The notes beneath the pieces are model-generated. The model saw nothing but the letters and a program-made list of their open reading frames with translations. It made no database searches and was not told where the DNA came from. The position numbers were made by a program, and so were the translations under genes. Positions 17,560-44,016 of a stretch of DNA of 64,000 bases are shown piece by piece (within the stretch, counting starts at the first letter, position 1; each line of letters starts with the position of its first letter). The stretch spans positions 44,062,475-44,126,474 of the forward strand of contig NC_057719.1 of the NCBI RefSeq assembly GCF_004010195.1, read 5' to 3'. This DNA is from Chiloscyllium plagiosum. Lineage: Eukaryota.

Positions 17560-19630
17560 AATCAGGCAGAAGCTTTATGAAAGGCAAATCATGTTGATAC
17601 AATTCTTTGGAGTTCTTTTGAAGCAGAATGCATTGTGGATAAAGGGGAACCTGTGAATGTACTTTGCTTAGAGAGGTAGAAGGCATTTGATAGAGTTGTG
17701 GTATAGGAGTAGCATGTGGGAAAGAATAGAAAACAGGCTTGTTAACAGCAAGTGGAGAATAGGGAATAAATGGGGCTTCTTCTGGTTGGCAAGGTACAAT
17801 GAATGGTGTGCCAAAGGGATTAGGATTAGATCTGGCATCAGCTTTTTATAAATAAATAAATTTGATGAAGGGACTGAAAGTACAGTTACTAAATTTTCTG
17901 ATGACACAAAGATAGTTAGGAAAATAACTTATGAAGAGTATATAAGAAGGTTGAATGGGTGTCTTGTAGATGATTTCCTCCTCAACCTGTTGTGAGATGA
18001 TATTATATACCTTTGGAATAGGTGGACTTGAACCCAAATCTCCTGGCACAGAGATAGTGACTCTACTACTCTGCAAATTGCATCCTAATGCAAATAGAAT
18101 GTAACGTGGGAAACTGAATCTGTCCATTTTGGCATCAAGAATAAAAAGGAAGTATATTATCTAAATGGTAAAAGATTGCAGAGTTCTGAGATGCAGATAG
18201 GTAGAATATAGAACATTACAGCGCAGTACAAGCCCTTTGGCTGTGCCACCCTGTGGAACCAATCTGATGCCCATCTAACCTACACTATTCCATTCTCATC
18301 CATATGCCTATCCAATGACCATTTAAATGCCTGTAAAGTTGGCGAGTCTACAACAGTTGCAGGCAGTGCATTCCACACCCCTTCTACTCTCTGAGTAAAG
18401 AAACTACCTCAGGCATCTGACCTATATCTATCACCCCTCAATTTGAAGCTATGCTCCCTCATGCTAGCCATCACCATACAACGAAAAAGGCTCTCATTGT
18501 CCACTCAATCTAACCCTTTGGTTATTTTATATGTCTCAATTAAGTCACTTCTCAACCTTCTCTTTAATGAAAACAGCCTCAAATCTTTCAATCTTTTCTT
18601 GTACGACCTTCTCTCCATACCAGGCAACATCCTAGTAAATCTCCTCTGATCCCTCACTCCCATGCCTCCGTAGTTTGTGCAGTCATCTACAGTGGGGACC
18701 TTATCAAATGTCTTACTGAAATCCATATACACCACATCAATGGCTTTACCCTCATCCACCTGTTTGGTCAACTTCTCAAATAACTCAATAAAGTTTGTGA
18801 GGCACAACCTACCCTTCACAAAACTGTTTTGACTATCCTCAATCAACTTATTCCTTTCTAGATGATTATAAATCCTATCTCTTGCAACCTTTTCCAACAC
18901 TTTATCCACAACTGAAGTAAGGCTCACTGGTCGATAATTACCAGGGTTGTCTCTACTCCCCTTCTTGAACAAGGGAACAACACTTGCTATAATCCAGTCT
19001 TCTGATACTATTCCTGTAGACAATGACAACATAAAGATCAAAGCCAAAGGTTTGACAATCTCCTCCCTGCCTTTCCAGAGAATCTGAGGTTAAATCCCAT
19101 CTGACCCAAAGGATTTATCTATTTTCATGCTTTCCAAAAGTTCTAACACCTCCTCCTTGTGAACCTCAATCCTACCTTGTCTAGTATGTTGTTTATCAGT
19201 ATGTTCCTTGACAACATTGTCTTTTTCCAATATGAATACTGACGAAAAATATTCATTTAGCGCTTTCCCTATCTCCTCTGGCTCCATGCACAACTTGCCA
19301 TGGCTGTTCTTGATAAGCCCTAATCTTACTGTAGTCATTCTTTTATGCCTTATTTACCTATAGATCTGATATTCCTGCATGAACTGCAAAAATTAGAATG
19401 CTGGTACATTAAACAATGAAACAATATTATTGTATATTGTGAGGGGAATTGAAGATTATTCTTCAGTTACACAGGGCATTGATGAGACAGATTCTTGATA
19501 ATTTTCAGCCCTTTTTTTATCAGGGTGGACAGAAATGTGGAATAATCCAATCAGCCATGATCTTACTGAAAGGTGGAGGAGGCTTGAGGGGCCAAGTAGC
19601 TTACTCCTGCTCCTAATTTGTATGCTCACA
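17560..19630. mobile_element. Old plus-strand CR1 interrupted by a younger minus-strand CR1 (~18204-19362, internally deleted)
   Basis: ORF 18505-19047: VPLFKKGSRDNPGNYRPVSLTS...YMDFSKTFDKVP joined to RFTRMLPG. Confidence 0.85.
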
Positions 19631-20385
19631 TGTGAATATTGCCTGTGTAGTATTATTCAGTGGATTAATTGCATTTAGTTTAACCAACACATTAGCTACA
19701 ACGAAGTCAATTATCCATTTGTCATTTGTAATGTTTCAATATACATGAAAGGCCAAAAAAAGCTAGAACTTCTTAAAACGAATGGAACTGAAAGCAGAAA
19801 GGTCACCAAGCCCTGTGATTGAATATGAATTAAAGAAGGAAGTCAAGAAGGAGATAATGAAGCCATGCGACATAATCTTCCAGAAGCTTTGAAAACAAGA
19901 ATTTTGCCAAAGTACTGGAGACCAGAAAGGATTATATTCATGATAAAGAAAAGGAAAAGGAATTAGCCAAATAATAGAGGCCAACAAATTTTACTTTAGT
20001 TCTGGGTAAATGTCCAGAGTCTATAAAATATGCTAATCAGGGACAAGGATCATGATTTTGAAAGGGTACTTTTAATTACTTGAATTGAATATCTTGAAGT
20101 AGTTAGAGTGTAAATGTTAAAAAAAATTGTTGCTATGGAGGTTGTACACATAGACTTCAAGAAAATATGATATCACATTAAAGAGCCAAAACACACTAAC
20201 TCGTTGTTCTTGGAACAGATGAGGCCAAGGTGGGACATATTAGAATTAACAAAACTTGGAAAAGTAAACAAAGAAGTTGCTTGCATTGGTTGAACAATTG
20301 ATAACAAAGAGATGTATTATCATAAGTAATGGGTGTTAAAATATTTTCATTCAACAGGGCATTAGAACATGGAATGCTTTACCAT

Positions 20386-20918
20386 CAATTCTGGTCTCCT
20401 TCCTATTGGAAGGATGTTGTGAAACTTGAAAGAGTTCAGAAATGATTTACAAGGATGTTCCAGGGTTGGAGGATTTGAGCTATAGGGAAAGGTTGAATAG
20501 GCTAAGGCTTTTTTCCCTGGAGCGTCAGAGGCTGAGGGGTGACCTTATCAAGGTTTATAAAATCGTGAGGGGCATGGATAGGATAAATAGACAAAGTCTT
20601 TTCCCTGGGGTGGGGGAGTCCAGAACTAGAGGGCATAGGTTTAGGGTGAGAGGGGAAAGATATAAAAGAGACCTAGAGGGCAACTTGTTCACAGAGAGGT
20701 TGGTGCGAAATGGAATGAGCTGCCAGAGGAAGTGGTGGAGGTTGGTACAGTTGTAACTTTTAAAAGGCATCTGGATGGGTATATGAATAGGAAGGATTTG
20801 GAGGGATATAGGTCAAGTTCTGGCAGGTGGGACTAGATTGGGTTGGGATATCTGGTCAGCATGAATGAGTTGGACTGAAGGGTCTGTTTCCATGCTGTAC
20901 ATCTCTATGACTCTATGA
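20386..20918 (+). mobile_element. CR1 (HER1-like) 3' end
   Basis: Near-identical to 11600-12131; tail ctctatgactctatga. Confidence 0.92.
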
Positions 20919-21625
20919 TCTTGGCTACTCAAGAAGGGACAATAATAATTTTTTTAAAAACTGGATAAATACTGGAAATGGATATACAAAAGCAAAAGGG
21001 TGGTCGGTTCTTCTAGTTGAAGAACTACCATTTGCACAAACCGCAAATTAAATGATTCTGTAATTCTACTTTATTTGCAAGCGTGGCAGAATTTACATTT
21101 TCAATTAGAAAAAGGATCAAAATATATAAATGCAACATGAAATCACAGCTGTCCACTCAAGCTAACACAAAAGCATCACTGCTTAGCTCATTTTTCTCTA
21201 CAGTTGTCTGGCTATAGTGAAGGGATATCTTTACGATAAGGAGGTCTACTTTCAATCAGAATGTGACCATAAATTATACAAGCATTACAATCCAGGCTGA
21301 GCATTCCTTCATACAACCTAAGTGCAGGCCCTGTAACAGCCATTTCATTAAAAAAAACTGCCACAATTTTTACAATTATGCCTTCAGGGTAAAAAAACAC
21401 TTGCCAAGAGAGAACATTAAAACATCTAATAGTCATACTGTGCAACTGAAAAATATATTTTGTTCATAATATCTGACATTTTGAAGGCAATGTAGTTACA
21501 AATTGCACTTAAATCATTCATATGAAAGATTACAACCCATGATTTCACTGCACATGAAAATTTGTATGCATCATACTAAGATGTATTGTATATCTCTAAA
21601 GTTACAGACTCTTTCTTCCACTTAC

Positions 21626-22514: not shown

Positions 22515-25002
22515 TTTATTAAAAATTTGTTCATGAGTTGAGGGTGTTGCTGTCTAGGCAAGCATTTGTTAACCATCCCTAATTGCACAGATGGCAGTTA
22601 GAAGTCAAATATATTAGAGTCATAGAGATGTACAGCATGGAAACAGCTGTACCAATTCGGCCATACCAACCAGATATCCTAACCCAATCTAGTCCCACCT
22701 GCCAGCACCTGGCCCAGATCACTCCAAACCTTCCTATTCATATACCCATCCAGATGTCTTTTAAATGTTGCAATTGTACCAGCCTCCACCACTTCCTCTG
22801 GCAGCTCATTCCATATACGTACTACCCTCTGATTGAAAAAGTTGCCTCTTAGGTTTCTTTTATATCTTTCCCCTCTCACCCTAAACCTATGACCTCTAGT
22901 TCAGGACTCCCCCATTCCGGGGAAAAGACTTTGTCTATTTATCCTATCCATGCCCCTCATGATTTTATAAACCTCGATAAGGTCACCCATCAGCCTCTGA
23001 CGCTCCAGGGAAAACAGCCCTACCCTATTCAACTTCTCCCTGTAGCTCAAATCCTCCAACCCTGGAAACATTCTTGCAAATCTTTTCTGAATCCTTTCAA
23101 GTTTCACAACATCTTTCTGATAGGAAGGAGACCAGAAATGCATAAAATATTCCAAAAGTGGCCTAACCAATGTCCTGTACAGCCACAACATGAGCTCCCA
23201 ACTCCTGTACTCAATACTCTGACCAATAAAGGAAAGCATACCAAATGCCTTCTTCACTATCCTTTCTAATGGCAATTCCACTTTCAAGGAGCTATGAACC
23301 TGCACACCAAGGTCTCTTTGTTCAGCAAAACTCCCCAGGACCTTACCATTAAGTGTATAAGTCCTGCTATGATTTGCTTTCCCAAAATGCAGCACTTCGC
23401 ATTTATCTAAATTAAACTCCATCTGCCACTTCTCAGCCCATTGGCCCATCTGATCAAGATCTCGTTGTAATCTGTGGTAATCTTCTTCACTGTCCACTAC
23501 ACCTCCAATTTTGGTGTCAGCAACAAATTTATTAACTATACCTTGTATGCTCACATCTAAATCATTTATATAAATGATGAAAAGTAATGGTCACAGGCCT
23601 CCAGTCTGAAGAATAACCTTCCACCACCACCCTCTATCTTCTACTTTTGAGCGAGTTCTGTGTCCAAATGGCAGGTTCTCCCTGTATTCAGTGAAATCTA
23701 ACCTTGCTCACCAGTCTCCCATGCAGCTCCACACAAAGGCTGCCTTGCTGATTTTTGAGGAGCCCTATTCTCTCCCTACTTACCCTTTTGTCCTTAATGT
23801 ATTTGTAAAAACACTTTGGATTCTCCTTAATTCTATTTGCCAAAGCTATCTCATGTCCCCTTTTTGCCCTCCTGATTTCTCTCTTAAGCATACTCTTACC
23901 GCCTTTATACTCTTCTAAGGATTCACTCATTCTATCCTGTCTACACCTGACATATGCTTCCTTCTTTTTCTTAACCAAACCCTCAATTTCTTTCGTCTTC
24001 CAGCATTCCCTATATCTACCAGCCTTTCCTTTCACCCTAACAGGAATATACTTTCTCTGGATTCTCATTATCTCATTTCTGAAGGCTTCCCATTTTCCAG
24101 CCATCCCTTTACCTGCGAACATCTGCGCCCAGTCAGCTTTTTAAAGTTCTTGCCTAATACCGTCAAAATTGGCCTTTCTCCAATTTAGAACTTCAACTTT
24201 TAGATCTGGTCTGTCCTTTCCATTTTATCCTATTTTAAAACTAATAGAATTATGGCCGTTGGCCCCAAAGTACTTCCCCACTGACACCTCTGTCATCTGC
24301 TATGCCTTATTTCCCAAGAGTAGGTCACCTTCTCTATTAGATGCATCCACATATGAATCAGAAAACTATATTGTACACACTTAACAAAATCCTCTTCATC
24401 TGAACCCTTAACACAATGGCAGTCCCAGTCTACGTTTGGAAAGTTAAAATCCCCGACCATAACCACCCTATTATTCTTACAGATAACTGAGATCTCCTTG
24501 TTTCTCAATTTCCCTCTGACTATTAGGGGGTCTATAATACAATCCCAATAAAGTGATCATCCCTTTCTTATTTCTCTGTTCTCTCCAAATAACTTCTTTG
24601 GATTATTTCTGGGAATATCCTCCCTATGTACAACTGTAATGCTATCCCTTATCAAAAACGTCATTCTCCCTCCTCTCTTGCCTCCCTCTCTGTCCTTCCT
24701 GTAGCATTTGTATCCTGGAACATTAAGCCGCCAATCCTGTCCATCCCTGAGCCACATTTCTGTAATTGCTATGATATTCCAGTCCCATGTTCCTAACCAT
24801 GCCCTGAGTTTTGGGGTCTGGAGTCATATGAGGCCAGGCAAGGTAGGGACAGCAGATTTCCTTCCTAAAGGACATCCCTGAAACAGATGGGTTATCACCA
24901 AAATTGACAGTGGTTATATGGTCACAATTAAGCTACTTTTACCCCATAACAATAACCCGATCTCTGGATTAAAAGCTAAGTAACATTACCATTATGCCAC
25001 CA
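22515..25002 (-). mobile_element. tRNA-derived SINE with LINE-derived tail, split by the CR1 at 22615-24810
   Basis: Head ggtggcataatggtaatg at ~24985-25002 (minus). The tail at 22515-22585 matches the LINE end at 4810-4880. Confidence 0.6.
22615..24810 (-). mobile_element. CR1 (HER1-like) LINE, ORF2 endonuclease and RT, with internal deletions
   Basis: ORFs 22901-23554 (KFVADTKIGG...LVRPLLEY), 23688-24122 and 24293-24508 (VGDFNFP). Same subfamily as 52663-55655. Confidence 0.93.
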
Positions 25003-31014: not shown

Positions 31015-31894
31015 CGGAAACATAGAACATTACAGTGCAGTACAGGCCCTTCGGCCCTCGATGTCATACTAATCTGAAGCCCATCCCACCTACACTATTC
31101 CATGTCGAAACATCAATTTCGAAGCTCCTTGGATGCTGCCTGAACTGCTGTGCTCTTCCAGCACCACTAATCCAGAATCTGGTTTCCAGCATCTGCAGTC
31201 ATTGTTTTTACCATGGACGTCCATTGGCCTGTCCAATGATGACTTAAATGCACTTAAACTTGGCGAATCTACTACTGATGCAGGCAAAGCATTCCATACC
31301 CTTACTACTCTCTGAGTAAAGAAACTACCTCTGACATCTGTCTTATACCTATCTCCCCTCACTTTAAAGTTGTGTCTCCTCTTGTTTGCCGTCCCCATAC
31401 TTGAAAAAAGGCTCTCCCTGTCCACCCTATCTAACTCTCTGATTATCTTGTATGTCTCTATTAAGTCACCTCTCAACTTTCTTCTCTCTAACGAGAACAG
31501 CCTCAAGGCCCTCAGCCTTTCCTCGTAAGACATTCCTTCCATACCAGGCAACATCCTAGTAAATCTCCTCTGCACCCTTTCCAAAGCTTCCACATCCTTC
31601 TTATAATGCGGTGACCAGAACTGTACACAATACTCCAAGTGTGACCGTACTAGAGCTTTGTACAGCTGCATCATAACCTCCTGGTTCCGGAACTCAATCC
31701 CTCTATTAATAAAGGCCAAATCACTGTATGCCTTCTTAACAACCCTGTCAATCTGGGTGGCAACTTTCAGGGAGCTGTGTACATGGACACCGGGATCTCT
31801 CTGCTCATCTGCACTCCCAAGAATCCTACCATTAGCCCAGTACTTTGCATTCCGATTACTCCAGCGAAAGTGTATCACCTCACACTTGTCCACA
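31015..31894 (-). mobile_element. CR1 3' portion with nested PLE end
   Basis: ORF 31090-31893 DKCEVIHF...LVRSHLEYCVQFWSP...FTQRVVRVWNALP. Confidence 0.92.
31105..31210 (+). mobile_element. 5'-truncated PLE end inserted in the CR1 3' end
   Basis: Matches 38365-38470; flanked by ccatg at 31100-31104 and 31211-31215. Confidence 0.8.
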
Positions 31895-33255: not shown

Positions 33256-34008
33256 TATATCTCCTTACAGCCTCTGTCTGTCTTGCTTACAGATTGCATT
33301 CACATCTAGCTCTGTATCATGCGCTAATTTATATATATTACTCTTGGTATCTTCAACTATGTCATGAACATTGATTTTAAATAACTCAGGTCCTAGCAAT
33401 AAGAGCAAAATACTTTGGATGCTGGAAATCTCAGCAGGTCAGACAGCATCTATGGAGAGAGAAACAGAGTTAACACTTCAGCTCCACTATGACTCCTCAG
33501 ACTTCTCCAATTCTAATCCATAATCCTTACAGTACCTCATTACCAATTGCCCATGAAGTTAAAATCTTCCATTTGTCCTTCCCATCTGCTTCCTGTCCAT
33601 TAATCAACCCCCTAGCATGCTATTACATTACTCCTGACTCCAGGATTTTGAAAGGATATCATTAAGATTTCCTTAATTTCAGCATTTTCTCAATTAATAT
33701 CAGACTAATTTCTCTGTAGTTTTGGTTTTCTCTTTTCATACTTTCCTGAGTGGCAGAATTGCTTTGCCAACTTCCCTCTGCTGAAATGATTCTAGATTTC
33801 TTTTAAACCAGCACATCCATTACCTCTGCAGCTGCCTCTTTCAGACCCCTAAAATATAAACAATCAGTTCCTGATGATTTGTGAAATTTTCGCCCCTTAA
33901 CTCTCCCCAATATTATTACCTCCATTGATATTAATTACCTTAAGTTCCCCATTGTTAAGAATAAGCTGGTTACCATATTTTGATATGTAATTTGCCTTCT
34001 ACTGTAAA

Positions 34009-34225
34009 GTTAAAAATCACACAATACCAGGTTATAGTCCAGTGAGTTTATTTGGAAGTACTAGCGCTGCTCCTTCGTCAAGTAGCTGGGTGACGAGCTA
34101 CCTGATGAAGCAGCAGCACTCTGAAAGCTAGTATTTCCAAATAAACGTGTTGGACTATAACCTGGTGTAGTGTGAGTTTTAACTTTGCCCACTCTAGTCC
34201 AACACTGGCCACCTCCTCATCATGG
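34009..34225. mobile_element. Inverted (hairpin) PLE-derived mini-element, second family
   Basis: Arms ~34006-34086 and ~34095-34186 are imperfect reverse complements, with a 39-nt tail. Flanking repeat cttctactgtaaa (33996-34008) / cttctaatgtaaa (34226-34238). CTGATGA...GAAAGCTA core at 34102-34130. Confidence 0.75.
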
Positions 34226-35409
34226 CTTCTAATGTAAATACAGGCAAAAATATTTGTTAAATGCCTCTGACATTCTGCATCAAAATCTCTCCTCTCTCTG
34301 CTTCTAAGAGATGAATACTTACTTTAGTTATTCTCCCTTTTATATATTTTATATATTTTACAAAGGTTCTTACATTCTCATTCTATTTGTTCACTTTTTA
34401 TCTTTTTTTCTGGAGGCTGTTTGCTGGTTTCTAAAACAAACCCAGTTCTCAGGGTTACAACCTTTAACATATTATTAGCCTCTTCTTTTAATCTAATTCA
34501 ATCATTTAAATCCTCAGTAAGCCATGGATCAATTTTCTTGATGAATGTTTACATTTTTTAAATGGAATGCATTTTGAATTGCTTCTTTAAAAAAGTTTCG
34601 CAATGCTTATTTACCACTATATCACATAGTCAATTTGCCCAATTAACTGTAGCCAGTTTGCCTTCACACATACATAATTTAAGATTATATTTTTGGTTGG
34701 GAGTATGTTGGTTTCAAACTTCAGTTATATTATGACCACTTTTTTTTCTAACAAGTCTTTTAATCTGAGATTGCCAACTGACTGCCGAATGTTTCTCTTT
34801 TTCATTAGTTCATATTTCTCACTGTGAATGCTTTCGTACTCAGATAAGGAGCCCCTAACTTTATTTCTTTACTACTATTCATTACATGGACTTTAGTCAG
34901 TGAAAAGCTATTATTAAGTGAGTAGATGTATTTGAATAGAGAAAGACTGCAGGAAGCTACAGAACAGACGGATTTAGGAGTCCTTGTCCATGAATCACAA
35001 AAGCTAGCATTAATAAGGGAATCAAGCATTACAGGGAAAAGACAAGAAAATGGAGTTGAGGTTTATCAGAGCAGCCATGATTTGGTTGAAAGGTGTAGCA
35101 GACATGCTGGGCTGAAGGCCTACCTCTGCTCCCACTCTTCTTGCTTTTGCTCAAGTTGCTACACTACTGTGCTGCTTCAGTATGTTCTTTTCGATTTTTA
35201 AATTTCCTTTCACTGAGATGGTGTAATAATGGAACTTAGTTCTGATTTTGGCAATGCTATATTTGATCGAGAGATATTAACGTGGAAGCAATCTACTCCC
35301 AGCATGAAAATCCTCCTTTTTATGTGAGACAACCCCTGTTGTAAGTTCACAAAAGATGGGAGTCTAGTTTTGTTCTAAATATAGATTGGTTGATTTAATT
35401 ATTGTAAAG

Positions 35410-35646
35410 GGGGGGATGGGTGTGGATAAAGGTTGAGCTGAAAAAAAGCACAGCAGGTCAAGCAGCATCAGAGGAGAAGGAGAGTCGATGTTTCAGGTCA
35501 GAATCTTTTATCTGTCCTGATGAAAGGTTCCGACCTGAAACATCGACTCGCCTTCTCCTCTGATGCTGCTTGAGCTGCTGTGCTTTTTCCAGTTCATGTT
35601 TTATCCCCACTCGGACTCTCCAGCATCTGCAGTTGTCACTATCTCC
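35410..35646. mobile_element. Inverted PLE-derived mini-element, third variant
   Basis: Arms ~35420-35510 and ~35513-35610 are inverted. Core gtc-CTGATGA-A-AGGT-tccg-ACCT-GAAAC-ATC-gac at 35514-35547. Confidence 0.75.
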
Positions 35647-35729
35647 TTAATTATATTAAATACAGAGCTAACAAACAAATATCACTTTCCACAACTTAAA
35701 CAACAGAGCTGTCAAACATAAAATAATTT

Positions 35730-36040
35730 TTAAAGAAATGCTGAAAAAAAACAAACAGTGGAACTCAACAGGTCTGGGCAACATCAGTTAAGAGAGAAAC
35801 ATAATTAACATTTCAAGTCCAATGACTTCTTTGCAACTGCAGCCTCAGGAAACTGGCAAACCCATCTGGAACGTGAGTTTGTAGAATGCTTTTCCTTGAA
35901 TAAAGTTACAAAGAAGAGTCACCAGACTAGAAACATTAACTTGTTTCTCTCTTCACAGATGCTGCCAGACCTACTGAGTTTCTTCAGCATTTTCTATTTT
36001 TATTTTGGTTTGACAGCATCCACAGTAGTTCCCTTTTGTT
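35730..36040. mobile_element. Old inverted PLE remnant pair
   Basis: actcaacaggtctgggcaacatc...gagagaaac is inverted relative to gtttctctc...gatgctgccagacctactgagt. Confidence 0.55.
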
Positions 36041-37135
36041 TATCGTAATGCTACTGTCTCCAAATTCAAGAATGCCAGCAGTTTATTTAAAGTATGTTAT
36101 CAACTATTACAAGTGGAAATTGATTATGATTTTACTTGCTTTGGTAGAGTGTTGGAATGAATAATGGGTGGTAATGTAAACATACACAACATTTTATTTG
36201 GAAAGGACATCTGCATGGCTGCAAAAGGTGCAGCACTGCCAAATAAGGGACCTTAAATCTACAAAGGAAAAATAAAATGATTAGTTGTTAACAAGTACCA
36301 GCATTGTTCTAGGAAAGCATCAATTCATGAAATGAAAATGTATATTTTCCTTCAAAAATTAGCATGTTTTCATTTTTAATAGAGGTTACCCTAAAGTATA
36401 ATTATTGCACAGCAAACATGCTACTTTACTACAGGCAGAAAGATAACAAACATAAACAGGATATATTAATATCTCAGAAACACAATAGAATAATCTTGAC
36501 AATAATGACATGATAGAACTGGGTTTTGTGCCATACCATTGCACTTTCTCATGCAAAAGTAAAGCAAATGTGATTATTAATTGTTCAGATTAACACATCA
36601 AGTGTTTGCAATACAAACAGCTAAAAAATTTATTCCAACTACAAGTAAGTTTCAGACAGAAGGGGGCAGGTAAGTGCTAAATATAAGATATTGTGCATTT
36701 CATCTTTTTGGACTCAATTTTTTGGGTTCACATACTAGCCAGTACAATGGTCAGAGAAGCTGCTAACATGGAAAAAGATATGATAGTCATAGACTCATAG
36801 AGGCAGAGATGTACAACATGGATACAAATGCTTCAGTTCTTGACTGCCCACAGTTTGTAGTTTTGTGGTTGAGAGGGAGCTGTGGGAAGTTCTCATAAAA
36901 TCAAAAGGAATGTGGTGCAAGGAACGAATGACTTTTCTTGGGAGTTTTAGAGCATGAATCTTGCTTCAAACCTAAGCTTGGGAAGGAAGGTTTCTTCATC
37001 CTTCGCAGTATTTGCTGTCATACATCAAAATCCAAAAGATGTCTGCCTTGCTCCATTCCAATTTTAAGCAACTGAAGTCTTTTTGTGTCTCTGAAGTGCA
37101 TAAATTCATGATATTCCAGGTTGATTTCGGCAGGC

Positions 37136-38474
37136 TCTGGATTAGTGGTGCTGGAAGAGCACAGCAATTCAGGCAGCATCCGAGGACAGGCAAAATCGAC
37201 GTTTCGGGCAAAAGCCCTTCATCAGGAATAAAGGCAGAGAGCCTGAAGCATGGAGAGATAAGCTAGAGGAGGGTGGGGGGGGGGAGAGAGTAGCATAGAG
37301 TACAATAGGTGAGTTGCTCGCTGCAGTATTCCCAGTCTCTGACCTGCACTTGTAGCCACAGTATTTGGTCATTTAGATATTGTGGGGAATTCAACAATGG
37401 CAATGCTTTTGGATGGTAATGATTAGATCTCATGAATAAAGGCTGTGGATGATTGTGTGAGGAATGATGGTTCACCTAAAGTACAGTTTTCATTTTAATT
37501 GCAAATACAGCATGCTGAACATGGGATCTTGCAATTATACATTTATAGTTTCTCTTGACTAATTATAGGTTCCTGAAACTACAGTTACCCTGAAACAACC
37601 AACGAATGCTGGAGGAACTTAGCAGTTCGGCAGTTTCAGTGGAAAGAGAGACAGTTAACATTTAGAGTCCAGTATAACTTTTGTTCAGAACTGTGAATTC
37701 TGTGTTTGTTTAGGTTGATTCTATCTTTTGTTGGGGGTGATCTTTGCCTGAACTTGTATGCTTCAAGTAAGAATGTTGTCTAGGCCTTGCTGCATATGGA
37801 GATGAAATGCTTCTGTATTTCATGAGTTGTAAATGGTACTGAACACAGCAGTCACTAGCAAACATTTCACTCTGACATAAAGAAGGGGAGGTCATTGTTT
37901 AAACGATTCAAGATGGTCAGGTGTGGAGCATGACATTGATCAACTCCTGCAGCAATGTCTTGGAAATGAGCTGATTGATCTCCAACAGCTATAATCTTCC
38001 TTTGTGCTAGGTATGTTTCCACCCTGATTTGCTGTTAATTCAATTTTTCTCATGCTCTTTGATGTTGAACTTTATTAAATATAGTCTCGATGTCAAGGAT
38101 AGTCAGTCTCACTTCATCTCTAGTTTTTAGTTCTTTTATCCATATTCAAACTAAGTCAGTAATAAGATCCAGAGCTGAGTGGGGCCGGACTGAATTTGAG
38201 CTGAACTGACTAAGTGCTGTCAACATTCCTTCCACTGCTTTGATCAGACAAATTTGTTTTTTTTTGCCTTTTTTGTGGGTTTGACATCCATTTCCTCAGC
38301 CTTGAATAGCTTATCTCTCCATGCTTCAGGCTCTCTGCCTTTATTCCTGATGAAGGGCTTTTGCCCGAAACGTCGATTTTGCCTGTCCGCGGATGCTGCC
38401 TGAATTGCTGTGCTCTTCCAGCACCACTAATCCAGAATCTGGTTTCCAGCATCTGCAGTCATTGTTTTTACCTC
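37136..38474. mobile_element. Young PLE insertion: inverted arms enclosing ~1 kb of unrelated DNA, 16-bp direct repeat
   Basis: 37136-37265 is the reverse complement of 38307-38436 (130 bp, one mismatch read). The tail is 38437-38474. gttgatttcggcaggc occurs at both 37120-37135 and 38475-38490. Confidence 0.8.
38347..38374 (+). ncRNA. Minimal hammerhead ribozyme core (the mirror copy is at 37198-37225, minus)
   Basis: CUGAUGA-A-GGGC-UUUU-GCCC-GAAAC-GUC. Confidence 0.65.
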
Positions 38475-38914
38475 GTTGATTTCGGCAGGCATCTTATCTA
38501 CCTACAGAATCCCTCAAGTTCAAATTGGAAGGGCTGAGTACTGATTGGTAACTAACCTGATCATTTTTTAATTACTCAACTGATCCATTTCTATCAGGTG
38601 GATTGGAGAAAACTTGATCCTAGATACTCCACTGCTGAGGATAGCATCACACAACTGATGGGGAGCATTACCTTTAGTCGCTTTCACTTACGTGCATTAT
38701 GGCTTTGACTCAGTGCCTTTGGGATAACATTAATCTATATTTAGGTTTGCATTGTATTATTTTTTTCTTACAACATCAATAATGAACACAGATACAAAGT
38801 ATATTTAAGTAGAATGTCACATTTGGCATTTTTTTTCAGTTTAATTGCAAATTAATCATATTGGAAGTGGAGCAAGCTGAGGCAGTAATTGGAACACACT
38901 GCGTTGTCAAGGTG

Positions 38915-39100
38915 CTGCTTTGATGAGGTGGTGACACATGAATCTCTGAGCCAGAAGGTTCAAACATGTTGCATTCAAGCCTCACTCCAGCCTTTATCAG
39001 ATGACCTAGGTTGAAATTTTGGTGCCAATAATAAGGAAATGTTATATTGTTGAATGTGCTGTTTTTCAGAAGAAATGTTAAACTAAGATTTCTGCTTTAA
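38915..39100 (+). mobile_element. Degenerate Deu-domain SINE (SacSINE1/AmnSINE1-like)
   Basis: tRNA-like head (ctctgagccagaaggtt...ttcaagcc), then ctaggttga...gtgctgtttttcagaagaaatgttaaactaag, resembling the DeuSINE core as I recall it. Confidence 0.5.
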
Positions 39101-39548
39101 TCTTGTTCACCATCTACCATCTTGGTACTCACATGACATGACAATAATGTCATGGAAATCAATCCCTATCAGTTAATCCATAAAATACTCAGGACTGAAG
39201 TAGGGAAACATCCACCACTCAAGTGTGGAAGATTTAGCAACAACAAGGGTCCCAGCTATCCATTCCTTCCTAGCTTCCTAAATTCTCAAGCTCATTTATG
39301 AAGGATAGTTGCTTGGATGAATTATCGGAGCGCTGATAGAACCTATACAATGCACACCAACTTGAAAGTCAGCACAGCCCGCCAGGATGGAGAAATCCAC
39401 AAGTTCTTCAAGAAAGAGTTAGATAAGATAAATAAGTTAAGAAAAAAACTTAAGAAAGAGTTAGATACATTTTTAGATTTTAAAGACAATCAAGCATTGT
39501 GGGAGAAAATTGGAATATGGCATTGAGATACAGGATTAGCCAAGATTT

Positions 39549-39869: not shown

Positions 39870-41579
39870 ATATTGAACAGCAACACAGGCTTGAAGGGCC
39901 AAATGACCGACTGATGCTTCTAGTTTCTATGTTTCTTAACTTTATCAAAAACAAAGTAAATCAATAACAAACTCTGTCATGTATTAAAAAAATACAAATT
40001 CTGAACAAAATGTTTTCTGGTACTTATAGTGTTAACTCTGGACTGAATCCCTGTGTTGGTGGCATTCCAGCATCTGCAGCTGTGCATAACCGAGTCAATA
40101 CATTATATATAACTTAGCAATAATGTAAGATTACTATCTAATATCAGTTAGTAAACACAAAGAGTTTTTGTTTTATGGAAAAGGTTGAACAATTCTAGTT
40201 CTTTGCCACTCAGACTAGGTATCGCTTCAACAAATAATATACTGACAATCAAACAAGTGCTTGAGGTGCTACAACTGAAATCAACCTTTATGCCAAAGTT
40301 ACATCTGGTGAAGGTAACCGTTTGTTTACTATGGTTTCTAAAGTCTCCATAGTGACGAGTGGCTTGAAAGATTTGACCCTTGCATTGAACCAAGGATTGA
40401 TGCGACATGAACATTTGAAGTGTTCACTGTTTATTTAACGTAGATGATCAGAACCTTTATGATGTCATTTTACATTTGATTATTTCCCTAATTAATGATT
40501 TTATTTCAAATTTACATTGTTGTACTGAAACAACTTAATCATGAAAGGCAGACAGAAGTGAAAACGAGTACAATATAACTTTTCTATCTTCTGTAGTGTT
40601 GGATTTGTTCAGAAAGAGAGCAGTATCTTTCAAAAAAATATATTTGCAACAAACATATTAAGTAGTAAGTATTGATATGAATTAAATACACATTACAAGA
40701 AAATGTTCTACCCTGTCAAGAAACTTATTTTCTAACCTATCCATTAGGAGATGTAATTACACACTTCTGGAGCAGGTATAACTTGAACCCAGACCTCCTG
40801 GCTCAGAGGTAGGGATACTACCAAAAGTGACACAATTCTGCTTCAATTCTCTAAAACTTTGTTACTAGCAACTTGATGGCTGCTTTGGTAAAGCCAGAAT
40901 AAAGATCAGAAGGTTGTTAACTTGATTTTTCATCTTCCTGAATTTCTGATCTTGAATAAGATGGCAACTTATAAACATTGGGAAAGAATAAAATTATTTA
41001 CAAGACTTCTCAAAAATCAAACTCTGGGTGCATCTCAAGTGATGACAGGAACACATTGGTTCAAATCTCCCAACTTTTAACTGGGGCAATTTTAGGATCC
41101 AATGTCTATTGGTCCAGATTTGAGGCAATGGAAGGGCCTATTGGAAGTTCAAAGTTCACGTGCAACTACTGAACATGTGCAACTACTGCCAGGAATTCCT
41201 TTTGATCTCAACATAAATTAGTGGCAAACTTCTGCAATTCAAATCAGAAGATGTGGGCCATTGATTTCTAAACTACACTGCTTCTGAACTTTCTCAGCTC
41301 TGATTCCTGCTAGCAACAATCAATGTCCTTCTCACTCAATTTTCGAAGAAACCCAAACAACCATGTCTTGTTCGTCATCTCAGTTTCTTCTGTGTGATCC
41401 TAAGTAAAGTCAAAAGTTCGCATCCACCCAATTCTGGCCTTTTGTGTATCTCCCACTTCCTACTCCTCACCACTGGTAGTCACTCTGTAGTTGAGATCAG
41501 TCTCAATATTGAAATTTCACCCCCTCTCCTCCTTTATTATTACCCTTTAATTATACCTCTTTGACAAAGATTTCTATGT

Positions 41580-41783
41580 TGAAACTTTATTGCTGGAACA
41601 GCACAGCACGTCAGGCAGCATCCAGGGAACAGGAGATTCGATGTTTCGGGCACAGGCCCTTCTTCAGGAATGTGCCCGAAACGTCGAATCTCCTGTTCCC
41701 TGGATGCTGCCTGACCTGCTGTGCTGTTCCAGCAATAAAGTTTCAACTTTGATCTCCAGCATCTGCAGACCTCACTTTCTCCT
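41580..41783. mobile_element. Inverted (hairpin) PLE mini-insertion with 15-bp TSD
   Basis: Arms 41578-41654 and 41671-41747 with a 36-nt tail. Flanking repeat caaagatttctatgt (41565-41579) / caaagttttctatgt (41784-41798). Hammerhead core on minus at 41636-41671. Confidence 0.85.
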
Positions 41784-44016
41784 CAAAGTTTTCTATGTCA
41801 CCATCCCAAAGCTTCCTCTTTTAGTCCAGTGTTAAACTTTGTCTGATTATGAACTTTGGTTTAAGGTTGGGAATATCCCAGTGGTTGAGATTTCCTACTC
41901 AGGGTAACTATTAATCAAAGTTATTGACTTTGCTCCAGGGACATCTGTTCATGGAACTCTAACAAGAGTTAGTACTGCCAGGGATAAGGAAGCAGAATAA
42001 AACATGTAACCTTAAAAGGTTAGTTGCCTGATCATTCATTCCTTCTACAGGTTACATACAAGCCACTCCAACAGGAACAGCACATAAAATACTTTAACCT
42101 CCAGGGAAAGATTCTGTTTTCATCCTAAACATACATGAAACAAACCTCCCGTTTGCCTCACTAAGTCTGTCTGTTTATACTGTATTATCTAAACAAAAAT
42201 GAATTTTTTGAAAAATCAATCATAAGTTTTATCAAACATGGTATGAAATTTCAAGAAGTCACAAAAATGCTGATTTTTTAAAAACCCTGTCACATCAAGT
42301 GGAAATATTATGTTAGCCAAGTCTGGCAAATGGAATATTTCCTTTGTTCAATACATTGTGTTAAAATGTAATTATTGGGTACATCGAGTTAAAATGTATT
42401 CAAGTTCCTCTGAGAAATCTGTTATCATGCACAAATAAGACAGCCATAAACTGTTCAATAGAAGTGAATCAAATCATTCTAAACATACACTGGAAGAACA
42501 CGTTCTGCCTTGACTATTCTGCTTTGATTGTTCAAAAAATTGTTACTAGCAACCTTTTGGCTACTTTGGTAAAACCAGTATGACACCGAAATCAGATGAC
42601 TGCAATCTTGATTGCTATTCTTATCTGTTTGAGATAGCAAACTTGGAAAGGTATCAAAACATGAGTGAGCACTCATCTAAATACACCAGAACAGGTCTCA
42701 ATATCTTTATGACAATTGAAACAAAGAAAAAGATAAATACAGCAAGAAAGGAAAAGCATCAATTAATTTGTCATTAAATAAAAACAAATATTGTCAAAGA
42801 CAAATGTTAACCGCAGGAGTGAAGTTTTTAGTACAAATTAAGGTCAAAGCAAATTTCCCAACCCAGTATTTTTGTTGCCATCTGATGTGGTGATTTCGCT
42901 ATAGTGTTTATGTGGTATATGAATAAATGCAGAACCTGAAAGTCAATATAATTGTAAATCTGTCAAATCCTAAATTAAGCTAGGAGAAAACTTTATAATG
43001 AATTACTTTTAATGGAGGGGGGGGGGATGGGTGCAGATGTGAAGAACATGCTAGACTGGAACAAAATGGCAAGCTAGACCTTCAAAGAGAAGAGCACTGC
43101 TTCAGATTATACATTTTAATTTCATACATGTTTCACACAATAAAATCATCATATAGCAATCAAATGTGCAGTTTACATTTATAATTATTTGTATTATGCC
43201 TGATACATTTTGATGAGCCGTAAAGCTCTCCCTGTTAAACAGATCTTTAAAGTTGTTGATGACATTTTCACCCAGTCAAGTTGCTACTGGTTCTGAGATT
43301 CCACCTCCCAATGGTTCAATTGTTAATCGGTCAATGGATCTTGCTATTTCTCAATTAAGTAACCAAGAACTGAGCCTTACATCTGATGGCAGCCATCCAC
43401 TTACTTTCTGCTGTGACAAAAACTTTATTGCATTTTTTTTCCTGTATGTTTTGAACAACAATACATTCTACTCAATAGTCACTGAGAAGTACACATACCA
43501 AACGTAAGAAGGTACAATAAATTCCCGTGGTTGAGCATCAAGTACAGCATGCTAAAGATTCTATATTTATCAAATATTTATCAAGCTCTTATAAAGAAAC
43601 AGTTTAGTTATAAAAGATCCTCAGAAATTAGTTTAGAATTAGAGTTTAGAAATCCAGAGATATCAATGGATAGTGTAACAAATGGCTGTTACTTTTAATT
43701 ATTTCTGGTAAAATCAACTTTTTATTTAAAGTACAGAAAATCCTCTTTCTGATCAAGGCCTTACTCTACTGCTTGCTATTACTACTACTTTATCATGAAA
43801 ATGCAACATATACACAGAACACAACTATATCCAAATATCCTGTCCAAATTCAATTGACATTACCAACTAACTGACCAGTTGCATTCTGCAACTGGATGAA
43901 TCAATCATCCTCTCTGCACTGAACTACAGAATCGGATAAACAATGAGCTAATGTATATACTTGACACCTCATTTATATTGATAAAATCAATGTCATTGTT
44001 AAGCCAACATCTCAAT

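Follow-up and report, generated by a model that had tools for sequence, protein, structure and literature searches.

A Penelope-like insertion that probably encloses older LINE-derived DNA between inverted arms in Chiloscyllium plagiosum

A Penelope-like element (PLE) unit with cargo between inverted arms lies at positions 37120-38490 of the window, the whole stretch of 64,000 nt that was analysed. The unit is probably a capture, of a mechanism class that is already known and with junk as cargo. A single PLE insertion very likely encloses DNA from elsewhere, acquired by copying at closure, by transduction or by later repair. We lean slightly towards a young insertion whose two cDNA ends, primed in opposite directions, were joined through about 1 kb of sequence copied in from a different locus.

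Architecture of the unit

The features of the unit are listed in Table 1. Its outer boundary is the perfect 16-bp direct repeat reported in the preliminary description; a search of all 64,000 nt found two copies of this 16-mer on the plus strand and 0 on the minus strand. An exact TSD match is expected by chance at about 9e-11 per position pair, or about 2e-7 over 50x50 offsets. Two independent insertions are incompatible with a 16/16 outer repeat (p about 2e-7), and this origin was rejected.

The arms had been described as 130 bp with one mismatch, and the alignment of 37136-37265 with the reverse complement of 38307-38436 reproduced this (129/130; Poisson 95% range of the divergence 0.02-4.3%). 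The left arm, placed earlier at 37136 to about 37312, was retained with its boundary amended to 37311, which gives a core of 995 nt at 37312-38306. This arm exceeds the paired part by 46 nt and adjoins the core directly. It is 76% identical to a related PLE end at 72-216 of the window, and its last bases stay in register with that copy up to 37311. The 38-nt tail ascribed to the forward arm was found there and on that arm only.

Table 1. Features of the Penelope-like unit and its cargo (positions in the window)
Feature	Position	Strand	Basis
Left TSD copy, 16 bp	37120..37135	+	16/16 with 38475-38490
Inverted tail-less PLE terminal arm, 176 nt	37136..37311	-	129/130 to right arm
Minimal hammerhead motif, left arm	37198..37225 (core 37202-37225; predicted cut after 37198)	-	Motif scan
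Inferred 5-nt microhomology, arm/core junction	37307..37311	.	Related PLE copy and LINE paralogs
Core part A, decayed LINE RT region, broken off within the element at the junction	37312..37472	-	117/160 to paralog 4473-4303
Old nested insert in LINE, about 220 nt net	37473..37726	.	LINE coordinates skip merely 36 nt
Degraded PLE end inside nested insert	about 37564-37701	-	Match to old PLE ends
Core part B, decayed LINE RT region, continuing part A collinearly	37727..38219	-	338/481 to paralog 4266-3748
Terminal 87 nt of core without assignment	38220..38306	.	LINE alignment within the range of shuffles
Forward PLE terminal arm, 130 nt; minimal hammerhead 38347-38374	38307..38436	+	Arm alignment, motif scan
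PLE tail, 38 nt	38437..38474	+	Missing from left arm; common to copy at 31177-31212
Right TSD copy	38475..38490	+	16/16 with left copy

The unit contains features of EN+ PLE insertions: an inverted 5'-truncated terminal copy, a one-sided 38-nt tail, a TSD and a minimal hammerhead. As judged against PMC4209133, both arms have the hammerhead core boxes, the bulge before helix II, the G10.1-C11.1 pair and the palindromic 15.2-16.2 positions, with a helix II of 4 bp. The arms had been called ribozyme-bearing, and the motif scan bears this out as a minimal hammerhead motif in each arm (a predicted ribozyme); Rfam at gathering score gave 0 matches in the entire 64-kb window. In single-strand folds helix II forms and the complete hammerhead does not. 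An ORF with a PLE-type RT and a GIY-YIG endonuclease is absent from the unit, and one frame in the left arm matched 0 Pfam families; PLE membership is therefore assigned from terminal features alone. A metagenome scan with a 29-nt motif of the arm and tail returned 0 matches. Measured from the hammerhead core, the left and right junctions are 86 and 40 nt upstream, away from the predicted cut. The ribozyme cut was thus ruled out as the origin of a junction, and no role of the ribozyme in the capture is visible.

Nineteen inverted pairs were found within 5 kb, and five of them were counted as self-contained PLE-like fold-backs (34006, 35318, 35762, 37131, and 41573). Only the 37131 unit has a long foreign middle. 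Two hairpin PLEs, given as 41580 and 34009 (34006 here), had been said to share its architecture with almost no spacer, in agreement with spacers of 16 and 61 nt, respectively. The 41580 unit has a TSD of 14/15, arms of 73/75 and a tail of 38 nt; the 34006 unit has a TSD of 11/13, arms of 52/60 and a tail of 36 nt.

The core, its junctions and the flanks

In the alignments, the core is best read as one aged antisense LINE copy that holds a nested insert. An old mosaic of LINE and PLE fragments had been proposed; the age holds, and the mosaic gives way to a single LINE copy whose nested insert carries a degraded PLE end. The LINE may be CR1/L2-like. Parts A and B (37312-37472 and 37727-38219) are collinear with the paralog at 4465-3748 at about 70% identity. 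The alignment of part A scored 82 against a shuffle maximum of 35 (0/500 shuffles attained 82). Part B, read through stops, matched RVT_1 with E=0.0027 and 17.9 bits, under the curated cut-off; the LINE paralog matched it with E=3.5e-14, above the cut-off. The PLE end in the nested insert shares 68/92 to 73/95 identity with old PLE ends at 33.4, 35.8, 35.9, and 44.0 kb. A collinear LINE of about 70% identity with a nested, decayed PLE end indicates that the core had already grown old as one locus well before the arms were inserted. The CpG o/e is 0.4-0.5 in the arms versus 0.16 in the core. For the final 87 nt of the core (38220-38306), the LINE alignment score was attained by 76/200 shuffles, and within about 1 kb of the flanks and arms there was no match over 9 nt. 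The preliminary description had named NIN introns for this site; the ORF list and exon scans gave no convincing host exon.

A close copy of the core is absent from the 64-kb window, where the best BLAST match was 65% over 468 nt and the longest exact match was 14 nt, versus 13-16 nt in 10 shuffles. A local donor was thus rejected, with none found within 37 kb upstream or 25 kb downstream.

At the left junction (37311/37312), the LINE is cut mid-element. The 5 nt at 37307-37311 are in register both in the related PLE copy and in 2/2 LINE paralogs of the window (4465 and 16396). This overlap suggests a 5-nt microhomology, which would arise by chance in roughly 0.5% of cases; the suggestion is drawn from the paralogs rather than from the donor.

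The flanks were searched for a continuation of the LINE in six tests, five of which were null and one positive. The LINE part upstream of the core is missing from the left flank, where the scores were attained by 107/500 and 96/500 shuffles, and from the reversed right flank (143/500 and 20/500 shuffles). The reversed left flank did not match the downstream LINE (345/500 shuffles attained the score). The right flank at 38585-38645 aligned to the downstream LINE, roughly on the diagonal of the core, with a score of 36. This score was attained by 0/500 base shuffles, 5/1000 dinucleotide shuffles and 6/562 real 200-mers. The anchored extension from the core into the right flank lost score, from 43 to 33 over 300 nt, against a gain of about 150 for the true LINE part; it was slightly above the null, with 3-4 of 78 null tails doing as well. 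The overall p of the right-flank trace is about 0.01-0.05, before correction for 6 tests. The trace is probably due to chance or to a separate older remnant. Faint LINE-like traces, just above shuffles, are present at 38585-38645 and 38872-39046, and they are possibly a very old remnant.

The best TSD-like match inside the core was 10/16, at 38286. It is the best of about 980 positions and is equalled by the best match on the opposite strand, so it was taken as chance. An inversion between two sites was also rejected: it would leave unlike outer duplications, whereas the outer 16-mers are identical and the best copy in the core is 10/16.

How the core may have been enclosed

The perfect outer TSD, the asymmetry of the tail, the old core, and the LINE that is cut at the left without continuation in the left flank together give good support to a reading as one event. 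The preliminary description had held that the PLE RT switched template or transduced 1 kb. What stands of this claim is one insertion event enclosing foreign older DNA, based on the outer TSD, the tail asymmetry, the age of the core and the cut LINE.

The preferred sequence of events, two cDNA ends bridged by a copy from elsewhere, would proceed as follows. A purified lizard PLE protein was reported to nick and extend both target strands in vitro (Frangieh et al. 2024, PMC11167929), and the same source describes reverse transcription from two internal sites, with the spacing equal to the tail length. On these grounds the arms can be read as two first-strand cDNAs from nicks 16 nt apart. The nicks, staggered by 16 nt, would each prime reverse transcription at one of two internal start sites, which would give one arm without a tail and one with a tail. 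Since both cDNAs have the same sense, pairing of their tips would require self-complementary sequence, for instance the hammerhead stem at which the sister hairpins pivot; the cDNAs of the 37120-38490 unit would have overrun this stem by 40 and 86 nt. At the left junction, one tip may then have used the 5-nt match to engage an outside template. Copying of 995 nt would have followed, through a template jump of the element RT or through a host repair polymerase; the sequence does not distinguish between the two. The ends would finally be ligated. Against this reading, the donor of the core was not found within the 64-kb window, and one of the six flank tests (38585-38645 in the right flank) was positive.

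The enclosed DNA may instead have been part of the RNA from the start. In a 5-prime transduction, a source PLE fused to the core would yield a read-through RNA that carries both core and arm; by internal priming, one cDNA would extend beyond the arm and take in 1 kb of upstream flank, and the other would halt at 130 nt. One template would then explain both arms and the core. A single template would yield near-identical arms, the longer left arm joins the core directly, and a local donor is absent from the window, all of which fit. Internal initiation was seen in PMC11167929, and read-through transcripts and trans-mobilisation were proposed in PMC3846280. However, the source copy must have kept what lies downstream of the start sites, of which the lizard element needed about 55-60 nt in vitro (PMC11167929), and overall we regard transduction as rather unlikely. 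Later repair is considered improbable. Here an ordinary hairpin PLE would have inserted first, and a copied fragment would have mended a break at its palindromic centre. Inverted repeats that are long and perfect are indeed prone to breakage, resection could account for the unequal arm lengths, and the microhomology is equally compatible with such a patch. However, two events would be needed in a short time, given one difference in 130 between the arms; no cargo has entered the sister hairpins (34006 and 41580), which persist with spacers of 16-61 nt; and both arms overrun the usual pivot.

The core could also be native, lying just left of the target and being copied or displaced at insertion, with the native copy and the adjoining DNA lost. 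In favour of this is the weak LINE trace of the right flank, which is collinear with the core (p about 0.01-0.05, uncorrected for the 6 tests). The right flank, however, has no LINE continuation at the divergence of the core, and the upstream LINE is missing from the left flank in either orientation, so an extra deletion larger than the core would be needed. Two independent insertions cannot produce the 16/16 outer repeat. A native core seems slightly more improbable still. An assembly artefact, in which unrelated DNA was joined through the repeated arms, is very improbable. Tandem and inverted PLE structures are reported to trouble assemblies (PMC8557442), but two mis-joins would have to recreate a perfect TSD and a one-sided tail. 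The sequence of the core is moreover present in the species. The run listing for 36200-39400 contained 24 runs, 18 of them with part of the stretch, and four runs (two samples from one study, one perhaps the source) contained 0.85-0.93 of its words; as the core makes up 31% of the stretch, its sequence must be included, its position in the genome not being implied. In 4 runs of study P6 the word shares were 0.65-0.76, and a retained donor would give the same words. Among relatives, the shares were 0.29-0.42 in five runs and 0.10 in one run of organism B, and 0.25-0.28 in 4 runs of organism C. These shares imply 96-99% identity and are compatible with either the presence or the absence of the core.

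Comparison with known systems and neighbouring repeats

A PLE-driven capture mechanism had been put forward; such capture is already described and is not new. In the rotifer Adineta vaga, Penelope pLTRs flank a host NRPS gene, an 8-bp TSD accompanies them, and the empty allele was shown (Arkhipova et al. 2013, PMC3846280). The authors further note that solo pLTRs enclose captured non-coding DNA in 'a few other cases'. The A. vaga capture is cited as PLE transduction in PMC6431247. As in A. vaga, unrelated DNA is here framed by PLE terminal repeats and a TSD, with an inverted pLTR and a one-sided tail. The differences lie in the arrangement and the cargo: the NRPS gene sits between two direct pLTRs, whereas the present cargo sits at the pivot of two inverted arms; and the A. 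vaga case has a gene as cargo and an empty allele, whereas the present cargo is dead LINE DNA.

The usual EN+ PLE insertion consists of an inverted 5'-truncated copy and a tail of 30-40 bp at one end (Craig et al. 2021, PMC8557442; PMC11167929). The present unit resembles it in the inverted tail-less arm, the forward arm with a 38-nt tail, the TSD and the hammerhead motif. It differs from it in that no ORF lies between the arms and 995 nt of non-element DNA replace the direct join. A further parallel is L1 twin priming, for which template switches and templated genomic inserts were described in a preprint (PMC11702581). As would hold for the present unit, in L1 two cDNAs are primed from both target strands, a discrete TSD (of 12-18 bp) is kept, the joins show microhomology, and DNA from other RNAs or genomic sites is found inside the insertion. 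However, L1 primes at poly(A) and then internally, which gives non-overlapping pieces of the RNA, whereas the two PLE start sites are separated by about 38 nt, and the arms therefore cover one and the same stretch. In addition, the templated genomic inserts in PMC11702581 came from near the insertion site, whereas the core has no donor in the window. Cargo at the pivot of an inverted PLE in sharks was not found in the open-access literature, which is weak evidence of absence.

The single copy at 37120-38490, with dead repeats as its only cargo, settles nothing without a donor. The pivot cargo may be a fossil of the closing step of PLE insertion, the later steps of which were left unvalidated in the account of PMC11167929. 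A genome-wide tally of units with cargo and of their donors could separate repair-type copying from transduction, and could also measure how much host DNA is moved by PLEs in vertebrates. It is a speculative and rather doubtful idea that PLEs, by priming internally and twice, routinely bring kilobases of host DNA, from upstream or from distant sites, to the pivot of their arms. If it were true, kilobase-scale duplication in this vertebrate genome would commonly be driven by PLEs. The 37120-38490 unit would then illustrate this over a long range, and sibling insertions could be traced to a single source locus.

Several other repeats were noted in the window. Five fold-backs are clustered within 34-42 kb. 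Those at 41565-41798 and 33993-34235 belong to two other PLE families; they are fold-back ends without cargo, and they pivot at the hammerhead motif. Two adjacent older fold-backs, at 35318-35723 and 35762-35980, are about 70% self-inverted, and the first of these contains a hammerhead motif at 35517-35540. Old inverted PLE ends at 33419-33473 and 35936-35990, which are 2.46 kb apart and 84% identical, might be independent copies or an older cargo-bearing unit. A single-armed PLE end of the same family as the unit, at 31104-31212, is 91% identical to the right arm and tail and lies inside the 3' end of a LINE; the paralog at 18190-18669 is without this PLE end and serves as the empty site for that copy. 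The long inverted pair at 20370-20922 and 22608-23154 (87%) is made up of an abundant LINE-like 3' end in two copies, not of PLE arms.
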